From: a virus | Taxonomy: Duplodnaviria > Heunggongvirae > Uroviricota > Caudoviricetes | Strand: one strand, 5' to 3' | Virus record (IMG/VR): IMGVR_UViG_3300037010_001573 | Coordinates: 64,001 to 128,000 of that record | Length of the DNA: 64,000 bases | Shown here: positions 3,153 through 63,082 of the stretch, one piece after another | Numbering within the stretch: position 1 is the first letter of the stretch | How the letters are laid out: each line of letters opens with the position of its first letter | Notes under the pieces: model-generated | The model's input: only the letters and a program-made list of their open reading frames with translations | Told to the model about the DNA's origin: nothing | Database searches by the model: none | Position numbers and translations under genes: made by a program

Positions 3153-3782
3153 TTATTTTTTATACACCCATATAAAATTATTTGTTTTTTTCAATATTTT
3201 TCTACATACTTTAGATATGGAAGAAGCATTACTATTTGTTTGTTTTGATGCTTCTTTAATACTATGCCATTCTTTAATAAAATTTCCTTCTAAATCATAT
3301 TGAATGATAGGTTTTTGATTATTTTCGGCTGCTTTTTTATGATTTCTATTTTTAGAAACTTTACATCCCATTCCTTCAGGTTTTGGAACTCCTAATCTGC
3401 ATTGTTTCATTAATTCTCCAAACCCATATGGTTTTTTTTTACCTTTTAATGCTTTGCTTTTTCGTTGTTTTGTTATATCCGATTGTTTTTTTCCTAACAT
3501 TGGTTTTTTGTCTTTTCTCCCTTCTTTAGATTCTTCAGAATGTTTTAAAGGACCACCACCACCTTTATTTTGATTAATCAAATCAAAACCCCATTGTCTA
3601 AATTGTTCAATCCAGTAGCATTCTATCAATTTTTTATCAATAGAATTAGTTATTTCTATATCTAATATTTCAATATCTATACCATATTTTTGCCTATGTT
3701 GGTTTACTCTAGTTTTTAAATTTTTAGTATATCCTACATAAAAAGGTATTTGATTTTTCTCTAAATAATATATATAAATCAT
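3153..3782 (-). mobile_element. GIY-YIG homing endonuclease with NUMOD3/NUMOD1-type DNA-binding tail, intact
   Basis: IYIYYLEK...FYVGYTKNLKTRVNQH catalytic motif, INQNKGGGG, KPIIQYDLEGNFIKEW; lies between the two PolB pieces. Confidence 0.9.
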
Positions 3783-3822
3783 ATTTTATTTTATCATAAA
3801 TATTACATTTACTATACAACGA

Positions 3823-5547
3823 TTAAGTTTTTTTATTCCCACAACCTTTAAGTGTATTTTTTATTTCATTGTTTATATAATTATTCATATTTATTATACT
3901 TTCTTGTAAAAGTCTTTGTCCTGTAAGTGTTATTGCCTTTGATATAAATTTATGCCCATCTGTATACCTCCATCCGTTTATAGCATAACAACCATAAACA
4001 TCGTTAAGTTTAATTTTGTAAGCATGTTGGCGTCTGTTATAAAAATCACCCATAATAGGATCTTTATCCACTTTAAACGCTTTTTTCATTAATACCTTAT
4101 ATTCACTCCTTTTATTAAACCAATCTGTCAATATATCACAAACAACGCTTGGTCTATCTTTTCTAAATAAAACACCCGGAGCTGAAATTGTCCAGTTTTC
4201 TTTTTCTATTAATTCCAATATTTTTCCTGCTTTAACAGTAGAACGAATAACAGATTTAGATGGTGTTAATCTTTCAATTTGTAATTCATATTCTGGATCT
4301 AGTTCTTTAAGTTCTTTAAGAGACCATTGATTATCATATTTATCTCTATTTACAATACGACCTATTAAAGTTTCAATACCTATATTCAATGAACGTATAA
4401 TAGAAGGGTATAAAGATGTAAAATCCAAGTCAATAACCCATTCATACAAACCTGGGACTGGATCTTTTAAATAACCACCTGCATATTCTTCTTTGATATC
4501 CTGTAGAGAAGGATTATAAGTGGTAGGTTTGTTAGGAGAAACAATATTATTACGTTTTAAATATGTTAATATAGCTCCTTCATTTAATACAGTAGACATG
4601 TATATTTGTTCATAAGGAACATGACATAAATGGCAAACAGTAATAGTTAAATCAATAAATTTCAGTTTTTTTTCTAATTCAACAAGAATTTCAACATCTC
4701 GAATATTATAATCGATGAATTTATCAACATCATCAACAAACAGTTTATCTAAAGAACCCAAATATTCGATTTTGCCTAAATTTACGTACTTTTCACCAAT
4801 ATCACCTAATTTGTAAGATGGTTCTTGCGCAGTAACATATTTTTTAAACAACAACATGTAATCTAAATGGTTAAGACCCGCTATTTTTGTTGTTTTAACT
4901 CCTCTAAAATCATTTTCATCGACCTTATTTAACGGTGATAAACGCACGGCCTCTGTTTTTCCGCATATTTTGGCGATTCTAGAGTAAAGATACGGTATAT
5001 CGAAGAATTCGCTGTTCCATCCTGATATTATTGTTGGGTCTATTTCATCCCACATGTCTAAGAAGCGGTTTAATAAATCCGCTTCATCTGAACATGGTAT
5101 TATATGTTTATTTCCTAATATTGAAGATTTTAATTTAGATTTTTCATCTAAAATATAACAATAATATATTTTTGTATTATTGTCATACAAAGCTATGGAT
5201 GTTATTTTTCCTTGTGGGTTTCTAACACTATCTTGTGTAAGAGCACCAGCAATTTCACATTCGATATCTAAATAAACTAAATTTTGAAAAGAAGGAACAT
5301 CATCTGAATCTGAATATGCATCTACTAATACTCTAGTGTATTTGTCTACATCACTTTCAAAAACAGCAATTTCTTTATAATCGTATGTTTTTGTAGGAGA
5401 CACACGTTTACCATCTATCGTCTTGAATTCACCAGCATCATCCAATCTATAACCGGTCGCACGATATGGGAAAGATACCCACCCTTTTTTATCGTCTTTT
5501 AAATGATACTCTTTAGTACCTCTATTGTAGTATATTGATTGATACAA
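3823..5547 (-). CDS. Family B DNA polymerase, N-terminal piece (3'-5' exonuclease, motifs A and B)
   Basis: YLDIECE, GWNSEFFDIPY, YNIRDV, DLDFTSLYPSII, KIKLNDVYG; lacks DTDS, which is in 2254..3150. Confidence 0.95.
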   Translation of the reverse strand: MYQSIYYNRGTKEYHLKDDKKGWVSFPYRATGYRLDDAGEFKTIDGKRVSPTKTYDYKEIAVFESDVDKYTRVLVDAYSDSDDVPSFQNLVYLDIECEIAGALTQDSVRNPQGKITSIALYDNNTKIYYCYILDEKSKLKSSILGNKHIIPCSDEADLLNRFLDMWDEIDPTIISGWNSEFFDIPYLYSRIAKICGKTEAVRLSPLNKVDENDFRGVKTTKIAGLNHLDYMLLFKKYVTAQEPSYKLGDIGEKYVNLGKIEYLGSLDKLFVDDVDKFIDYNIRDVEILVELEKKLKFIDLTITVCHLCHVPYEQIYMSTVLNEGAILTYLKRNNIVSPNKPTTYNPSLQDIKEEYAGGYLKDPVPGLYEWVIDLDFTSLYPSIIRSLNIGIETLIGRIVNRDKYDNQWSLKELKELDPEYELQIERLTPSKSVIRSTVKAGKILELIEKENWTISAPGVLFRKDRPSVVCDILTDWFNKRSEYKVLMKKAFKVDKDPIMGDFYNRRQHAYKIKLNDVYGCYAINGWRYTDGHKFISKAITLTGQRLLQESIINMNNYINNEIKNTLKGCGNKKT

Positions 5548-11415: not shown

Positions 11416-11826
11416 TTAAAATGTAATTGTAGTTATCTCCTTAATTACTATAGTCTCAGGATCAAAATCTTTATCCAATTGTTTAGCTACTGTTAATTCT
11501 AAAGATACTCCTTTTTTAATTTCTACCCATAGTTCTTTTACAAATTTAGAAGAAATTACTTCATTCTTATCATTTCTTTCTACAGTAAAGACTGCTACTT
11601 TTACTTGTTTATCCATATTGTTTGAATGTGTTATTGTTTGTTGTAATAAATAATTTGCTGTATTCCCGAATGCTTTTAAATCTGTTAAATAAGTTTCCCC
11701 ACTTGATGGAAGGTTTATTATATTAGTATTCTCAATATATGGTGTTGTGCTCCAATTATTTGGATCATATACATTCACCCCAATTGTTCTATTAGTTGTA
11801 TTGTTTGTATTTGTTTGATTGAACAT
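11416..11826 (-). CDS. Hypothetical protein
   Basis: 136-aa ORF in operon context. Confidence 0.55.
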   Translation of the reverse strand: MFNQTNTNNTTNRTIGVNVYDPNNWSTTPYIENTNIINLPSSGETYLTDLKAFGNTANYLLQQTITHSNNMDKQVKVAVFTVERNDKNEVISSKFVKELWVEIKKGVSLELTVAKQLDKDFDPETIVIKEITTITF

Positions 11827-11830
11827 AGTC

Positions 11831-12718
11831 CTAATTGTTGTATTCTTTTAATACTTTTTGAACTGCATCTCTTGCAGTCTCCCATGTTACGGGTCCTGTT
11901 TCGTCTGCATAAGCAACGGGATCTTTTCTTCCTAATTTAATAAATGCTTCGATACGTTCTATTGAAGATGCTGACTTATAGTCTGAGAACCAAGTGTAAG
12001 TCTCTACCCAACCTCCTTCGTCTTTATACCCATCAGTAATACAAATTGGCTTATAAGATGTATTAGTTCTTGAATAAACTTCATCAAAATCTAATTCTAA
12101 CTCTTCACATAATACTTCTCCATCTTTTAAGATATCGAATTTATTACCTTCAAGATAGGGAGTAAAATATCCTACTTTTTCGGCTCCCCAATTTCCTAAA
12201 CGGAAAGCATTATCATCAGCATCTCTAAATTCAACTCTACAATCCGGGTAAATCGAAAAATCCCCAGCATGGATTCCTAATGCAATATCACACTGCTCTC
12301 CTGTACGATTTGCAATTGATAATGCTACGGCTTGAGAAATAGAAGCAAACATCTTGTTTCTGTTAGGAACAACTGTTTCTTTCATATTATCTTGCTCGTA
12401 ATGACCTTCTGGTACATCTTTACCTCCTGTTACTAAAGCTGAATCTAATAGATCAACTAATCCATCTAGTTTGATTTGACGGTAATTTACAGGAATATAC
12501 TTACCAAAATCTTCTCCTCTGTGATTAGTTTCGTAAAAGTTACTGTTAACGTAATCTACTAATGATTGAGCTCTCTCTAGCTCTACTCTGTGTTTTTGAC
12601 CATAGTCAAAACTTATGGCCGTAACAGTTGAGTATTCTTTTAAACAACGTAACAATAAGGTGCTGCTATCCATTCCACCTGAAAGTGAAACCACTACATG
12701 TTTTTTTAAATTTTGCAT
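11831..12718 (-). CDS. queC: 7-cyano-7-deazaguanine (preQ0) synthase
   Basis: VVVSLSGGMDS PP-loop, FDYGQKH, TVVPNRN, GIHAGDFSIYPDCR. Confidence 0.95.
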   Translation of the reverse strand: MQNLKKHVVVSLSGGMDSSTLLLRCLKEYSTVTAISFDYGQKHRVELERAQSLVDYVNSNFYETNHRGEDFGKYIPVNYRQIKLDGLVDLLDSALVTGGKDVPEGHYEQDNMKETVVPNRNKMFASISQAVALSIANRTGEQCDIALGIHAGDFSIYPDCRVEFRDADDNAFRLGNWGAEKVGYFTPYLEGNKFDILKDGEVLCEELELDFDEVYSRTNTSYKPICITDGYKDEGGWVETYTWFSDYKSASSIERIEAFIKLGRKDPVAYADETGPVTWETARDAVQKVLKEYNN

Positions 12719-12787
12719 ATTTTTAATTTTTAAAACTTTACTCCGGTATTTACAAATTATGGAGCTTTAAACTTTATTATAATATAA

Positions 12788-13202
12788 TTATTCTTTTTTG
12801 AGTTTCCAACGATTTTTAGCGGCTTCTTGCATCTTTAACCGAATTTCTTCTGATGGTTTTCTCCCTGTAGCAGCTTTACGTATCTTTTCATTTCTCTCTT
12901 CAGTATAAATTTTATCTTTCCAATCTGATATGTCCCTTTCCTTGGAGATAATCTCTAAGTTTTTGGTTTCTTTCTTGGGATGATTCTACATTCCATTTCC
13001 AATTTTTACCCTTATTAGCTCCTTTGTTACCACAATTTGTAGTGTCTTTTAATTTCCAGGTTTTACCTTGAGTGGTACTTTTTCCTATCATTCTTTTAGA
13101 TTGAGATTGTTTCCATTCTATAGTTTGAGATACAGGGTCATAACTTTTGTTTATTTTATTATAAAATAAAGGATTATTAGAGGCATCATAATATCTATTC
13201 AA
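12788..13202 (-). pseudogene. Degenerate homing endonuclease remnant (NUMOD3-type tail; catalytic domain missing; frameshifted)
   Basis: ORF 12912..13202 (YYDASNNPLFYNK...) continues in the +1 frame as ...KIYTEERNEKIRKAATGRKPSEEIRLKMQEAAKNRWKLKKE to TAA at 12788. Confidence 0.7.
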
Positions 13203-13238
13203 TGTAAATATATGAAAAAGTCAAAAGCTGCCATTTAG

Positions 13239-13283
13239 TTACATTCCTCCACTTAAGGATACCACAACATGTTTTTTAGACAT
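13239..13283 (-). pseudogene. Orphan 14-codon copy of the QueC N-terminus (MSKKHVVVSLSGGM-stop)
   Basis: Direct translation; KKHVVVSLSGGM is identical to QueC residues 5-16. Confidence 0.85.
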
Positions 13284-13343
13284 AATTTATAATCTAATTT
13301 GTGCCAGGTATTACTAGGATATAGGCAAATCCTTTTATAACTA

Positions 13344-13571
13344 CTATTTTTTCTCTCCTTCGTAAATCTTATTTCCGAAATATTCATCTAAAAATTCTCT
13401 TCGATAAAGCAATATAGTACCTTTGTAACGAGTATTATTAATTTGTCTTGTACCAATTGTTTCTTTTAGTTTTACAGCAGTATCAGCTACTTGTTTTCCT
13501 AAATCAGAACCTGCTGCTTTTCCTAAATAATCAAAAAGAGACATCATGTATGGGGGTTGTGTTTCTTGCAT
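13344..13571 (-). CDS. Hypothetical protein
   Basis: ORF in operon context. Confidence 0.6.
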   Translation of the reverse strand: MQETQPPYMMSLFDYLGKAAGSDLGKQVADTAVKLKETIGTRQINNTRYKGTILLYRREFLDEYFGNKIYEGEKK

Positions 13572-13699
13572 AACGATTTTATTTTAAATTTAAGTATTGA
13601 AAAATAACCAATAGCACCAGCTATTATTGGGGATGTATTTAATAAATGGGGGTGGCCTTCACCACAAGAACCAAACAAATGTCCTATTATTTCACCCAT
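13544..13699 (-). CDS. Small membrane peptide (51 aa) with CGEGHPH motif
   Basis: Manual translation MGEIIGHLFGSCGEGHPHLLNTSPIIAGAIGYFSILKFKIKSLCKKHNPHT. Confidence 0.45.
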   Translation of the reverse strand: MGEIIGHLFGSCGEGHPHLLNTSPIIAGAIGYFSILKFKIKSLCKKHNPHT

Positions 13700-13700
13700 C

Positions 13701-13844
13701 TTATTTAACCCCTTGAGATTTATAATGCTCTGCTTTTGAAAAATTATATGCAGATTGTTCTCTTCTTTCTAATTTTGCTTTTCCCAATGTTGGTAACCAC
13801 TCCATTAGTTGCATGTATTTACTTTTTGATGATGTTTTACTCAT
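13701..13844 (-). CDS. Small hypothetical protein (47 aa)
   Basis: Manual translation MSKTSSKSKYMQLMEWLPTLG...; tightly packed between neighbours. Confidence 0.45.
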   Translation of the reverse strand: MSKTSSKSKYMQLMEWLPTLGKAKLERREQSAYNFSKAEHYKSQGVK

Positions 13845-13850
13845 ATTTTT

Positions 13851-14639
13851 TTATTTATTACAAAATCTTTTAAATCTTTCTACATTAAATTTAATATCTT
13901 CTAATTGATTCTCCAAATTTAATTCCATAAATTCTTCTATTTTATTAGAGGGTTTTTCTAATAAACCAATATCACTATATCTGATGTTTAAAGCACCACA
14001 TATTATTGGATTTGAAGTATCAACAGAATTAATCATTCCTTTAGGCCAGTTATCTCTATAATGGGTAAATTCTTGAGGAGCAGAACATCCTAACAGATGT
14101 ATATAATGATGATCTTTAATTAAATTTTCATCTTTAAATTGTTCTAATAATAACACACGCCCAACAGCTTGGTTTGCTAATTTATTTTCAGTAGGACATA
14201 ATGTTTGGTATACTATAGAAGAATGATTAAAAGCAAAATGTTTATATCCAAGATCAATACAACTCTGAAATAATAATTTAATATCAGATACAGTTTCACC
14301 TTGTAATACAACCATCAATTGAGTTCTTTCAGGCATTTCATATTGTAACCAATGTTTAGCATTAACAGATGTTGTTATTTTGTCATTCCAAGCATCGGGT
14401 ACAATAAAAATATCAGGTTGAATTAGTTTTATTTTTTCACGTAAATCCGCTATAGTATGTGTTACACCTTCAAACAAACCATTATCCATTATGATAAATC
14501 TACCTTTTGCTCGAGCATCTATAAAATATTCTTTGTAAGTTTCATATTTATCTAACAAATGTGGTAAACAATATTCATAGTCATTCCATCCTAAACTATA
14601 AGGAAGCAAAGATAAAGGTAACTCATGTGAAATTTTCAT
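13851..14639 (-). CDS. TGT/DpdA-like transglycosylase-fold protein
   Basis: IIMDNGLFE (cf. TGT/DpdA DSG/DNG motif), FIVPD, HLLG and SVDTS (cf. catalytic Asp strand); lies between queC and queD. Confidence 0.6.
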   Translation of the reverse strand: MKISHELPLSLLPYSLGWNDYEYCLPHLLDKYETYKEYFIDARAKGRFIIMDNGLFEGVTHTIADLREKIKLIQPDIFIVPDAWNDKITTSVNAKHWLQYEMPERTQLMVVLQGETVSDIKLLFQSCIDLGYKHFAFNHSSIVYQTLCPTENKLANQAVGRVLLLEQFKDENLIKDHHYIHLLGCSAPQEFTHYRDNWPKGMINSVDTSNPIICGALNIRYSDIGLLEKPSNKIEEFMELNLENQLEDIKFNVERFKRFCNK

Positions 14640-16170: not shown

Positions 16171-16370
16171 TTATTTAGATTTCCAAATATAACCAAAGGC
16201 TGTTTTTTATCTTCCTTTTAAACATACCGTTATACAGGAGTTGTTTATTGATTTATATAAGCTTTTTAAGGCTTCTAATATAGATTTAAATTCTTTAATT
16301 AAATTTCCTTGAAAATCGTATTGCTTAATAGATTTACTAAATCTTTCACTAACTGGTTGGGGTTTTGGTT
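16171..16370 (-). pseudogene. NUMOD1-type homing endonuclease tail remnant downstream of nrdA
   Basis: Manual translation KSIKQYDFQGNLIKEFKSILEA...CITVCLKGR*KTAFGYIWKSK; similar to the C-terminus of 3153..3782, with an in-frame TAA and no start. Confidence 0.7.
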
Positions 16371-16429
16371 TGCTATTGGCTTTACTTATTTGGCTTTATA
16401 TTCATATGTAAAAGATCAAAATATTATGC

Positions 16430-62387: not shown

Positions 62388-62883
62388 AATTTATATTGGT
62401 GACCTCATGCTGCCATAAGAAATTAATACCCTTATCAACTAAATATTGATACCAAGCAACTGCTATAAGAGAAAGATAATTACTTCCTATATGCCATACA
62501 GGAAATAAACGTAATCCAAAGTATGGTTTAATAAATTCAGGTTCTTCAACAGGATCAGAACAAAATATTTCTTCTGGTTTAGGGTGAAAGCGTCTAAAGT
62601 TACTAATAACTTGATCCATCAGTTGCATTGCTTTGTCTTCACCACAATACTTGGATAATTGACCCCCAATGGCTGTATGGTATGTGAGTTTACCATCAGA
62701 GTATCCTCCAGCTCCTGCAAACCCACACATAACCTCTTCTGGTTTTCTTTCATAAGGGTCCTTGCCTTTATCTATAATTGTTATAAGTTCACCGGGATAA
62801 CCCCCATCTACTAATTTTAATGCTGCGTTAATCCCAGCTACTCCACTTCCTACAATTACAATTTTCTTTTCGTATTTACTCAT
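62341..62883 (-). CDS. FAD-dependent oxidoreductase (COG2509-like), N-terminal piece
   Basis: IVIVGSGVAG Rossmann motif, GFAGAGGYSDGKL. Confidence 0.85.
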   Translation of the reverse strand: MSKYEKKIVIVGSGVAGINAALKLVDGGYPGELITIIDKGKDPYERKPEEVMCGFAGAGGYSDGKLTYHTAIGGQLSKYCGEDKAMQLMDQVISNFRRFHPKPEEIFCSDPVEEPEFIKPYFGLRLFPVWHIGSNYLSLIAVAWYQYLVDKGINFLWQHEVTNINFETNEVEYKPIEDKK

Positions 62884-63082
62884 TTTTACATTTCCATTTA
62901 TAATTTAATGCTGTTTTTTGTCTTCCTAATATACAATCTTTAATTTGTGAAGTTAAATTACTATTTTTGCCTGTTAATTCTTTAAAATATTTAGCAGCTA
63001 ATCCTTTACTCTCCCATTCTTTAATAAAATTACCTTCTAAATCTAACTGTAATACAGGTTTAGCACACTTTAATTTAGCCAA
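62876..63082 (-). pseudogene. NUMOD1-type endonuclease tail remnant
   Basis: KPVLQLDLEGNFIKEWES...ILGRQKTALNYKW; no catalytic domain; upstream in-frame stops. Confidence 0.65.

Follow-up and report, generated by a model that had tools for sequence, protein, structure and literature searches.

The 64,000-nucleotide stretch analyzed here (the window; positions 64,001 to 128,000 of the IMG/VR virus record IMGVR_UViG_3300037010_001573, a member of the Caudoviricetes) carries on its minus strand the gene queC, preceded by the remains of a homing endonuclease gene and, further upstream, by a short second copy of the queC start, which we call the stub. Homing endonucleases settle in conserved coding sequence by a few textbook routes, namely introns, inteins and, in some T4-like phages, split genes. 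The locus is probably explained in another way: a nuclease block would have been copied into queC together with its own foreign 5' end, so that a hybrid QueC was kept complete. According to this explanation, a free-standing GIY-YIG (SegE/I-TevI-like) homing endonuclease gene would have been copied into queC at its PP-loop (SGGMDS) codons, as part of a block composed of the nuclease gene, a short intergenic segment and the foreign first ~38 codons of queC with their start codon. The resident promoter and first 14 codons would have been left behind upstream as a stub, its stop codon supplied by the block, and the rest of the resident queC would be read from the imported start to give a complete hybrid QueC, with no intron, intein or gene splitting involved. 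The window would represent a later stage, in which the nuclease is dead and the hybrid gene and stub are left.

Layout of the queC locus and origin of its two starts

The features of the locus, with the origin that we attribute to each of them, are the following (nt, nucleotides; aa, amino acids; ORF, open reading frame).

13344..13571, minus strand: upstream gene, 75 aa, syntenic with the gene 5' of queC in the nuclease-free loci L041 and L046
13284..13343, minus strand: native queC upstream region, with a small hairpin followed by AATACCTGGCA ~30 nt before the ATG
13239..13283, minus strand: stub, consisting of the resident first 14 queC codons (13283-13242) plus TAA
13195..13238, minus strand: left end (leader) of the inserted block, with a mutated GTGACAGCT copy and an 11-codon mini-ORF, MAAFDFFIYLH
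12788..13194, minus strand: dead GIY-YIG (SegE-like) homing endonuclease gene, ATG at 13189-13187 and stop at 12790-12788
12719..12787, minus strand: intergenic segment travelling with the replacement start, with a weak hairpin around a TAAATACC motif
12605..12718, minus strand: foreign queC 5' end (codons 1-38), which has an ATG of its own and encodes a longer N-terminus
11831..12604, minus strand: rest of queC, mostly of the resident lineage, mosaic in places

The stub opens with an ATG at 13283-13281, continues through 14 codons (MSKKHVVVSLSGGM) and ends in a TAA at 13241-13239; this stop comes from the inserted block, the junction lying after the GGAGGAAT(G) motif at ~13242/13241. The full queC, 520 nt downstream, runs from 12718 to 11831, encodes 295 aa beginning MQNLKKHVVVSLSGGMDSS and has its PP-loop codons at 12688-12665. 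Stub, decayed endonuclease and full queC had been placed at these minus-strand positions in an earlier reading of the sequence made without database searches (the sequence-only reading), and all three were found there. The 295-aa product matched Pfam PF06508 QueC (E = 8.5e-36, residues 8-222), contained the SGGMDS motif and aligned with uninterrupted QueC proteins across its full length (residues 1-295); by family and motif it is predicted to be QueC (7-cyano-7-deazaguanine synthase). No second queC copy was present in the 161.7-kb virus record containing the window. The stub duplicates residues 5-16 of the protein only, and these 12 shared residues are indeed written in different synonymous codons, as had been claimed (9 of 36 bases differ, all synonymously); two copies of such a string within 560 nt are far beyond chance. 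Contigs of two other sequencing runs (X3 record 16 and X4 record 24) span the stub, the junction, the deletion joint and the nuclease remnant with zero differences, and since contigs of independent runs cross the junctions in this way, the layout is not an assembly artefact. Stretches left uncovered in runs X4 and X23 carry no meaning.

Comparison with phages lacking the insertion pointed to the codon version of the stub as the ancestral one. In the closest cultured relative, Flavobacterium phage vB_FspM_immuto, queC is uninterrupted and opens with the residues of the stub; its identity to the window was 86% over 13329-13242 (upstream region plus stub) and 74% over 12731-11803. Naive alleles of the window's own lineage (L046, L047, and L050) have the stub codons but for 1-2 bases, preceded by the same upstream region and the same upstream gene, and the region at 13284..13343 is common to the nuclease-free alleles L001, L041, L046, L047, and L050. 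Because the stub and ~60 nt upstream of it match nuclease-free relatives, immuto included, the stub is the original queC start, still attached to its native upstream region. The 75-aa gene, by its synteny with L041 and L046, likewise marks the resident backbone.

The start of the working gene showed other affinities. Over codons 7-38 the window differed from the naive L046 at 35 of 96 bases (64% identity), with two amino-acid changes, whereas over codons 39-60 identity was 94%; naive alleles among themselves were 89-92% identical in codons 7-38 and 85-91% in codons 39-60. Compared with L003, where the nuclease is intact, the window presented 92% identity in codons 7-38 and 85% in codons 39-60. 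The identity break, located between codons 38 and 41, marks where the co-transferred donor tract ends on its right side. The sequence-only reading had supposed that the element brought, or selected for, a replacement 5' end: the break from 64 to 94% and the 92% identity to L003 speak for the first of these options, while selection was not demonstrable. Alleles similar to the imported tract are common in the queC of more distant phages, and the apparent recoding is therefore best read as import from a diverged lineage. Beyond this 5' tract, queC was also mosaic at window positions 12238-11999 (alignment columns 161-240); in columns 161-200 the window was 87-97% identical to L054 and ~73% identical to its otherwise closest relatives, which suggests further recombination tracts inside the gene.

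A new promoter in front of the full queC, which had also been proposed, found no support in the analysis. A promoter-like TTGGAA-17-TATATT exists at 12809-12781, overlapping the 5' edge of the intergenic segment; however, 850 nt of this AT-rich DNA contained 10 sigma-70-like matches (4.3 ± 2.0 in shuffles), and the named hexamers were no better than those expected by chance. In L007, L009, and L010 the queC ATG follows the nuclease stop after no more than 12-28 nt, a gap without room for a promoter. A conserved intergenic segment of ~70 nt accompanies the replacement start in the window, L003, L005, L006, L008, and L054. It contains a hairpin (12765-12761 pairing with 12744-12740) with paired changes in the stem between L003 and L005/L006, and it resembles the native upstream region (GTTTG ... 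AATACC[TG]G ~30 nt before the ATG). The segment could represent the control region of the donor queC; that stub and nuclease are transcribed through from the native promoter would be an equally good reading. The read and contig coverage of the locus gave no transcript start.

The native upstream region itself (window, L001, L003, L041, L046, L047, and L050) displayed a 4-5-bp hairpin with paired changes in the stem and a constant TTGCCTAT loop. Hairpin and AATACCTGGCA together may constitute a phage-specific promoter or regulatory site; the motif was not general in the genome, and the folding energies of the hairpins upstream of queC were no better than those of shuffles. AATACC as a genome-wide promoter motif was rejected, as it was common and not tied to gene starts.

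The nuclease gene and its decay

The nuclease remnant gave nothing significant in Pfam or PHROGs; its decay, correctly recognized in the sequence-only reading, was established by means of its relatives. A longer-protein search retrieved 15 full-length relatives of 202-238 aa, the best of them 85% identical. Aligned with L003, where the gene is intact, the window proved to have lost 220 nt between the copies of a 10-nt direct repeat (joint at ~13194-13185), a deletion that took residues ~1-72 and with them the entire catalytic domain, and to have gained a single extra A at 12937 that shifts the frame. The remainder of the gene was ~93% identical to L003.

Intact relatives matched PHROG 314 'homing endonuclease' (E = 6e-17). 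A phmmer search with the N-terminal 95 residues returned 1107 relatives at E ≤ 0.001; in a sample of these, 55 of 68 matched Pfam SegE_GIY-YIG (PF19835) and 35 of 68 matched GIY-YIG (PF01541). P0001, the intact nuclease protein from L003, gave by itself only sub-threshold NUMOD matches in Pfam, and a profile search of PDB sequences and a tblastn search against GenBank phages for the nuclease yielded no match. A first model of the full-length protein was poor (predicted local distance difference test, pLDDT, 41), whereas an AlphaFold model of residues 1-100 built with a deeper alignment was usable (pLDDT 88). The best PDB match of this N-domain was the catalytic domain of I-TevI (1mk0; template modeling score, TM, 0.65/0.67; root mean square deviation 2.9 Å; Foldseek E = 3e-3), followed by UvrC GIY-YIG domains. 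The intact relatives are thus predicted to have the GIY-YIG catalytic fold (beta-beta-alpha-beta-alpha). The catalytic residues Y10 (Tyr of GIY), Y21 and G23 (Tyr and Gly of YIG), E67 (the catalytic Glu), and N84 of P0001 were invariant in the 68-sequence alignment; the window copy does not retain this set because the deletion removed residues ~1-72, and it is a pseudogene of the GIY-YIG homing endonuclease family rather than an active member. A second copy of the catalytic domain was not found in the same genome, and in an hhalign comparison with the GIY-YIG gene that Pfam recognizes elsewhere in the window (3153-3782) only the C-terminal NUMOD1-like part aligned.

The nuclease gene, which is out of frame with queC, possesses start and stop codons of its own, and Rfam recognized no intron around it; it is free-standing, embedded in neither intron nor intein. 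In run X23, a freshwater metatranscriptome library, a 254-nt contig covers 12745-12999 (nuclease 3' end and intergenic segment). This contig stems from a close relative without the frameshifting A at 12937 and is not a demonstration of transcription; it does imply that relatives with an intact frame are present in that habitat.

Recurrence of the arrangement in other phages

An intact nuclease was found directly upstream of queC in 14 loci besides the window (L003-L010, L121-L124, and two lookalike contigs known from search listings alone), and the queC-associated nucleases formed one clade with a support of 100/100. Eight different stubs were distinguished, one of them common to the window, L003, and L004, and one each in L006, L007, L010, L121, L122, L123, and L124; these types occur in different gene neighborhoods. 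All stubs end after GGAGGRAT in the PP-loop codons, with the exception of L122, where the junction is decayed. Insertion of the element at the PP-loop, proposed from the window alone, was therefore recurrent, the eight stubs of different phage backgrounds ending at the same motif. A conserved GTGACAGCT motif follows within 4-13 nt of each stub; in the L006/L007 subclade the nuclease starts at the GTG of this motif, and the stub stop lies 4 nt before it.

Alleles free of the nuclease are the rule: the 80 nearest queC loci of IMG/VR contained one PP-loop each and no nuclease of this GIY-YIG family at the site. In one of these loci, L054, the slot is filled by an unrelated HNH nuclease: a 221-aa HNH-motif endonuclease (L054:1780-2445) lies between the 75-aa upstream gene and queC (L054:2501-3394), there is no stub, and downstream of the nuclease come the conserved intergenic segment and the long-N-terminus queC start that are also found in the GIY-YIG cassette. 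Two nuclease families thus use one site upstream of queC. A sister clade (~45-50% identical) was located directly upstream of a GroEL/Cpn60-like gene in L011-L017 (for example L011:2989-3705 and 3727-5346). When other targets were checked for the stub layout, no duplicated stub was found beside the GroEL-like gene in the viral contigs of this sister clade.

Four states of the locus could be recognized. Naive alleles are those of immuto, L001, L046, L047, and L050; L003 and L004 have been invaded and retain an intact nuclease; in the window the invading nuclease has decayed; and L041-L045 and L098 have the foreign tract but no nuclease. In the last of these, the native upstream region and the first three codons are fused to the tract. 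Such a fusion is the expected product of recombination between stub and new copy, or of break repair converting the flank without the nuclease, and an allele of the L041 type should be resistant to the nuclease. The locus thus presents a presence/absence polymorphism with a co-converted flanking tract.

Some additional genes of the window, all on the minus strand where a strand is given, were also recorded. The ORF at 3153-3782 (-), of 209 aa and placed between two PolB pieces, matched Pfam GIY-YIG (E = 4e-6), NUMOD1, and NUMOD3. At 16174-16374 (-), near a ribonucleotide reductase gene, a tblastn search with P0007 (E = 1e-10) revealed a NUMOD1-like endonuclease C-terminus with an in-frame stop, which looks like another decayed nuclease gene; similar NUMOD1-like C-terminal modules occur at 3162-3356 and 62882-63070. 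Near queC, at 13851-14639 (-), a 262-aa ORF without Pfam match corresponded to PHROG 19058 (E = 4e-34, function unknown) and was conserved upstream of queC in L003 and L005.

Mechanism, alternative explanations and known systems

The movement of the block can be pictured as follows. The nuclease would cut a naive queC at or near the position where the stub ends; the left end of the break would prime on the donor stub and the right end would pair with the downstream queC, and the block would then be copied as in intron homing, the recipient keeping its own stub sequence. The many synonymous differences of the imported tract should protect the invaded genome from its own nuclease, and loss of the cleavage site through this tract, which had been suggested as a possibility, can be soundly inferred. 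The first stub might have been made by an illegitimate join, the stub-free layout perhaps being older.

Several observations weigh against this explanation. The cut site is deduced solely from the end points of the stubs, and cleavage, homing, and transcription are all read from sequence. A search for an 'immunity' base detected no single base separating nuclease-linked from naive alleles, and 6 of the 12 GIY-YIG-linked copies keep GGAGGA like the stubs. Given that tracts like the imported one are common among queC alleles elsewhere, a selected recoding is not demonstrated either. Moreover, a stub is lacking in L005, L008, and L009, although the same nuclease and leader precede queC there. In the nuclease tree, L008 and L009 take basal positions, with poorly supported branching, and L005 nests beside L003; stub-free intergenic residence may hence be the original condition and the stub layout a derived one, and a microhomology join as the origin of the first stub junction is only a guess.

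These same stub-free loci, together with the unrelated HNH nuclease in the stub-free slot of L054 and the fact that the Seg and Mob nucleases of T4 move in this manner (PMC2988022), are what could be adduced for ordinary intronless homing of an intergenic nuclease, the stub then being inherited debris of a rare illegitimate join with no role in mobility. We consider this unlikely. The eight stubs have different resident sequences and neighborhoods and share the same stop position and the same left-end motif, and repeated accidents would not share one junction; nor does a single inherited accident account for them, because each recipient carries its own codons, the window stub matching the naive allele of its own lineage but for 1-2 bases. 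Tandem duplication of the queC start in this genome, followed by drift and by a later landing of the nuclease, or its variant with two full paralogues of which one decayed, would explain why the same 12 residues occur twice, 560 nt apart. It is nevertheless very improbable: the stub is 1-2 bases away from naive alleles of the same lineage, whereas the other copy shares 64% identity with these alleles and 92% with the nuclease-linked ones found elsewhere, an asymmetry that argues for import and not for drift in place. In addition, no sequence of a first paralogue follows the stub, the nuclease leader beginning 7-15 nt further on.

A group I or group II intron bearing the nuclease gene, with the stub and the DSS codon as exons and the second queC start as incidental, would be in keeping with a nuclease family that is often intron-borne and with the T that precedes the stop codon of the stub. 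However, there was no match to Rfam Intron_gpI or group II introns at E ≤ 10 in window positions 11500-14500, nor any such match at E ≤ 0.1 in five intact loci (L003, L005, L006, L007, and L010). The ~110 nt outside the nuclease ORF are too little for a ribozyme core, and the gap between nuclease stop and queC ATG shrinks to 12-28 nt in L007, L009, and L010. Nothing is missing from the downstream ORF, whose ATG is its own and whose longer N-terminus is conserved, and the stub-free loci do without any 'exon 1'; an intron is thus extremely improbable, and the earlier idea of a gene repaired without splicing held. A split gene of the Aeh1 nrdA type was also rejected, as the downstream ORF is full length and the stub merely duplicates residues 5-16.

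The copying of a nuclease block with a carried queC start, which we favor, has its closest precedent in the fungal mitochondrial hybrids formed by a mobile ORF plus a carried gene end; the working principle is the same, not the element lineage. A mobile endonuclease ORF with a carried gene end is attributed to Allomyces macrogynus atp6 (Paquin et al. 1994, as cited in PMC3630166). In Glomus, atp6, atp9, cox2, and nad3 are hybrids with a mobile ORF and a carried C-terminus (Beaudet et al. 2013, PMC3630166), and in Endoconidiophora, C-terminal duplications of cob and atp6 lie beside GIY-YIG and LAGLIDADG ORFs (PMC6279837). As in those hybrids, the ORF of a free-standing homing endonuclease lies within a conserved gene, a foreign terminal segment joins the resident core in frame, and the displaced native segment is kept adjacent; the inserted copy is ~60-65% identical in DNA with a nearly unchanged protein, and the native remnant matches close relatives. 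The values are also alike, 63.5% for the inserted copy vs. 91.2% for the native one in Glomus atp6 (Beaudet et al., PMC3630166), and 64% vs. 94% or more here. In contrast to the fungal cases, in which the 3' end is replaced, here it is the 5' end, so that the block has to come with a start codon, translation signals, and perhaps a promoter as well; a bacteriophage takes the place of the mitochondrion as host, and the target is a gene of a DNA-modification pathway. The stub also differs in keeping the native promoter and start codon, and it may drive expression of the nuclease. The locus can therefore be regarded, by analogy, as the 5' mirror image of the mitochondrial 3' phenomenon, in a phage and with a new target gene.

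Among phage systems, the free-standing Seg (GIY-YIG) and Mob (HNH) nucleases of T4-like phages move by intronless homing with co-conversion of the flanks (PMC2988022; SegB, PMC2330249; mobE, PMC2790892). The element of the window resembles them in being phage-borne and free-standing, in its GIY-YIG domain with NUMOD-like C-terminal modules, in the presence/absence polymorphism with a co-transferred donor flank, in its decayed copies, and in the occurrence of another family in the same slot (L054). T4-type nucleases lie between genes and, for those inside genes (mobE in Aeh1 nrdA, mobA at gene 60, seg in gene 43), only split genes with reassembling products have been described (PMC2988022); unlike these, nothing is split here, the downstream ORF being complete and the upstream piece a 14-codon leftover. 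With nucleases borne by introns or inteins, such as I-TevI in the T4 td intron, the element shares the insertion in a conserved, critical coding motif, the catalytic fold, and the flanking of the cut by homology arms, here the stub and the downstream queC, that would allow homing. It differs from them in that there is no self-splicing RNA or protein and function would be rescued at the DNA level by the carried segment. A literature search, whose incomplete coverage makes it weak evidence of novelty, retrieved no phage precedent for a duplicated or replaced gene start beside a homing endonuclease.

Tentatively, and with rather more reserve than conviction, these elements could form a class of their own among phage mobile elements, that of 'exon-replacement' homing cassettes, in which a free-standing nuclease colonizes coding sequence at an essential motif by carrying a substitute 5' gene segment. 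The stub would serve the nuclease as left homology arm and as donor of promoter and start, the imported tract would be the immunity determinant, and the direct repeats formed by stub and new copy would allow clean loss of the nuclease, leaving a permanently resistant allele of the L041 type. Homing endonucleases persist in conserved coding sequence only if the host gene still works, and bringing along a spare gene start would be a fourth route to this end in phage. All stages of the cycle, from the naive locus through invasion and decay to loss of the nuclease with the foreign tract left in place, are represented in public data for a single phage lineage, so that the cycle can be tested directly, and a cultured naive relative, Flavobacterium phage immuto, is available. 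For genome annotation, short orphan ORFs duplicating gene starts and abrupt synonymous mosaicism at 5' ends are a trap, as they may be footprints of nuclease invasion. Finally, since queC belongs to the 7-deazaguanine DNA-modification pathway, elements of this kind would shuffle anti-restriction alleles between phages.

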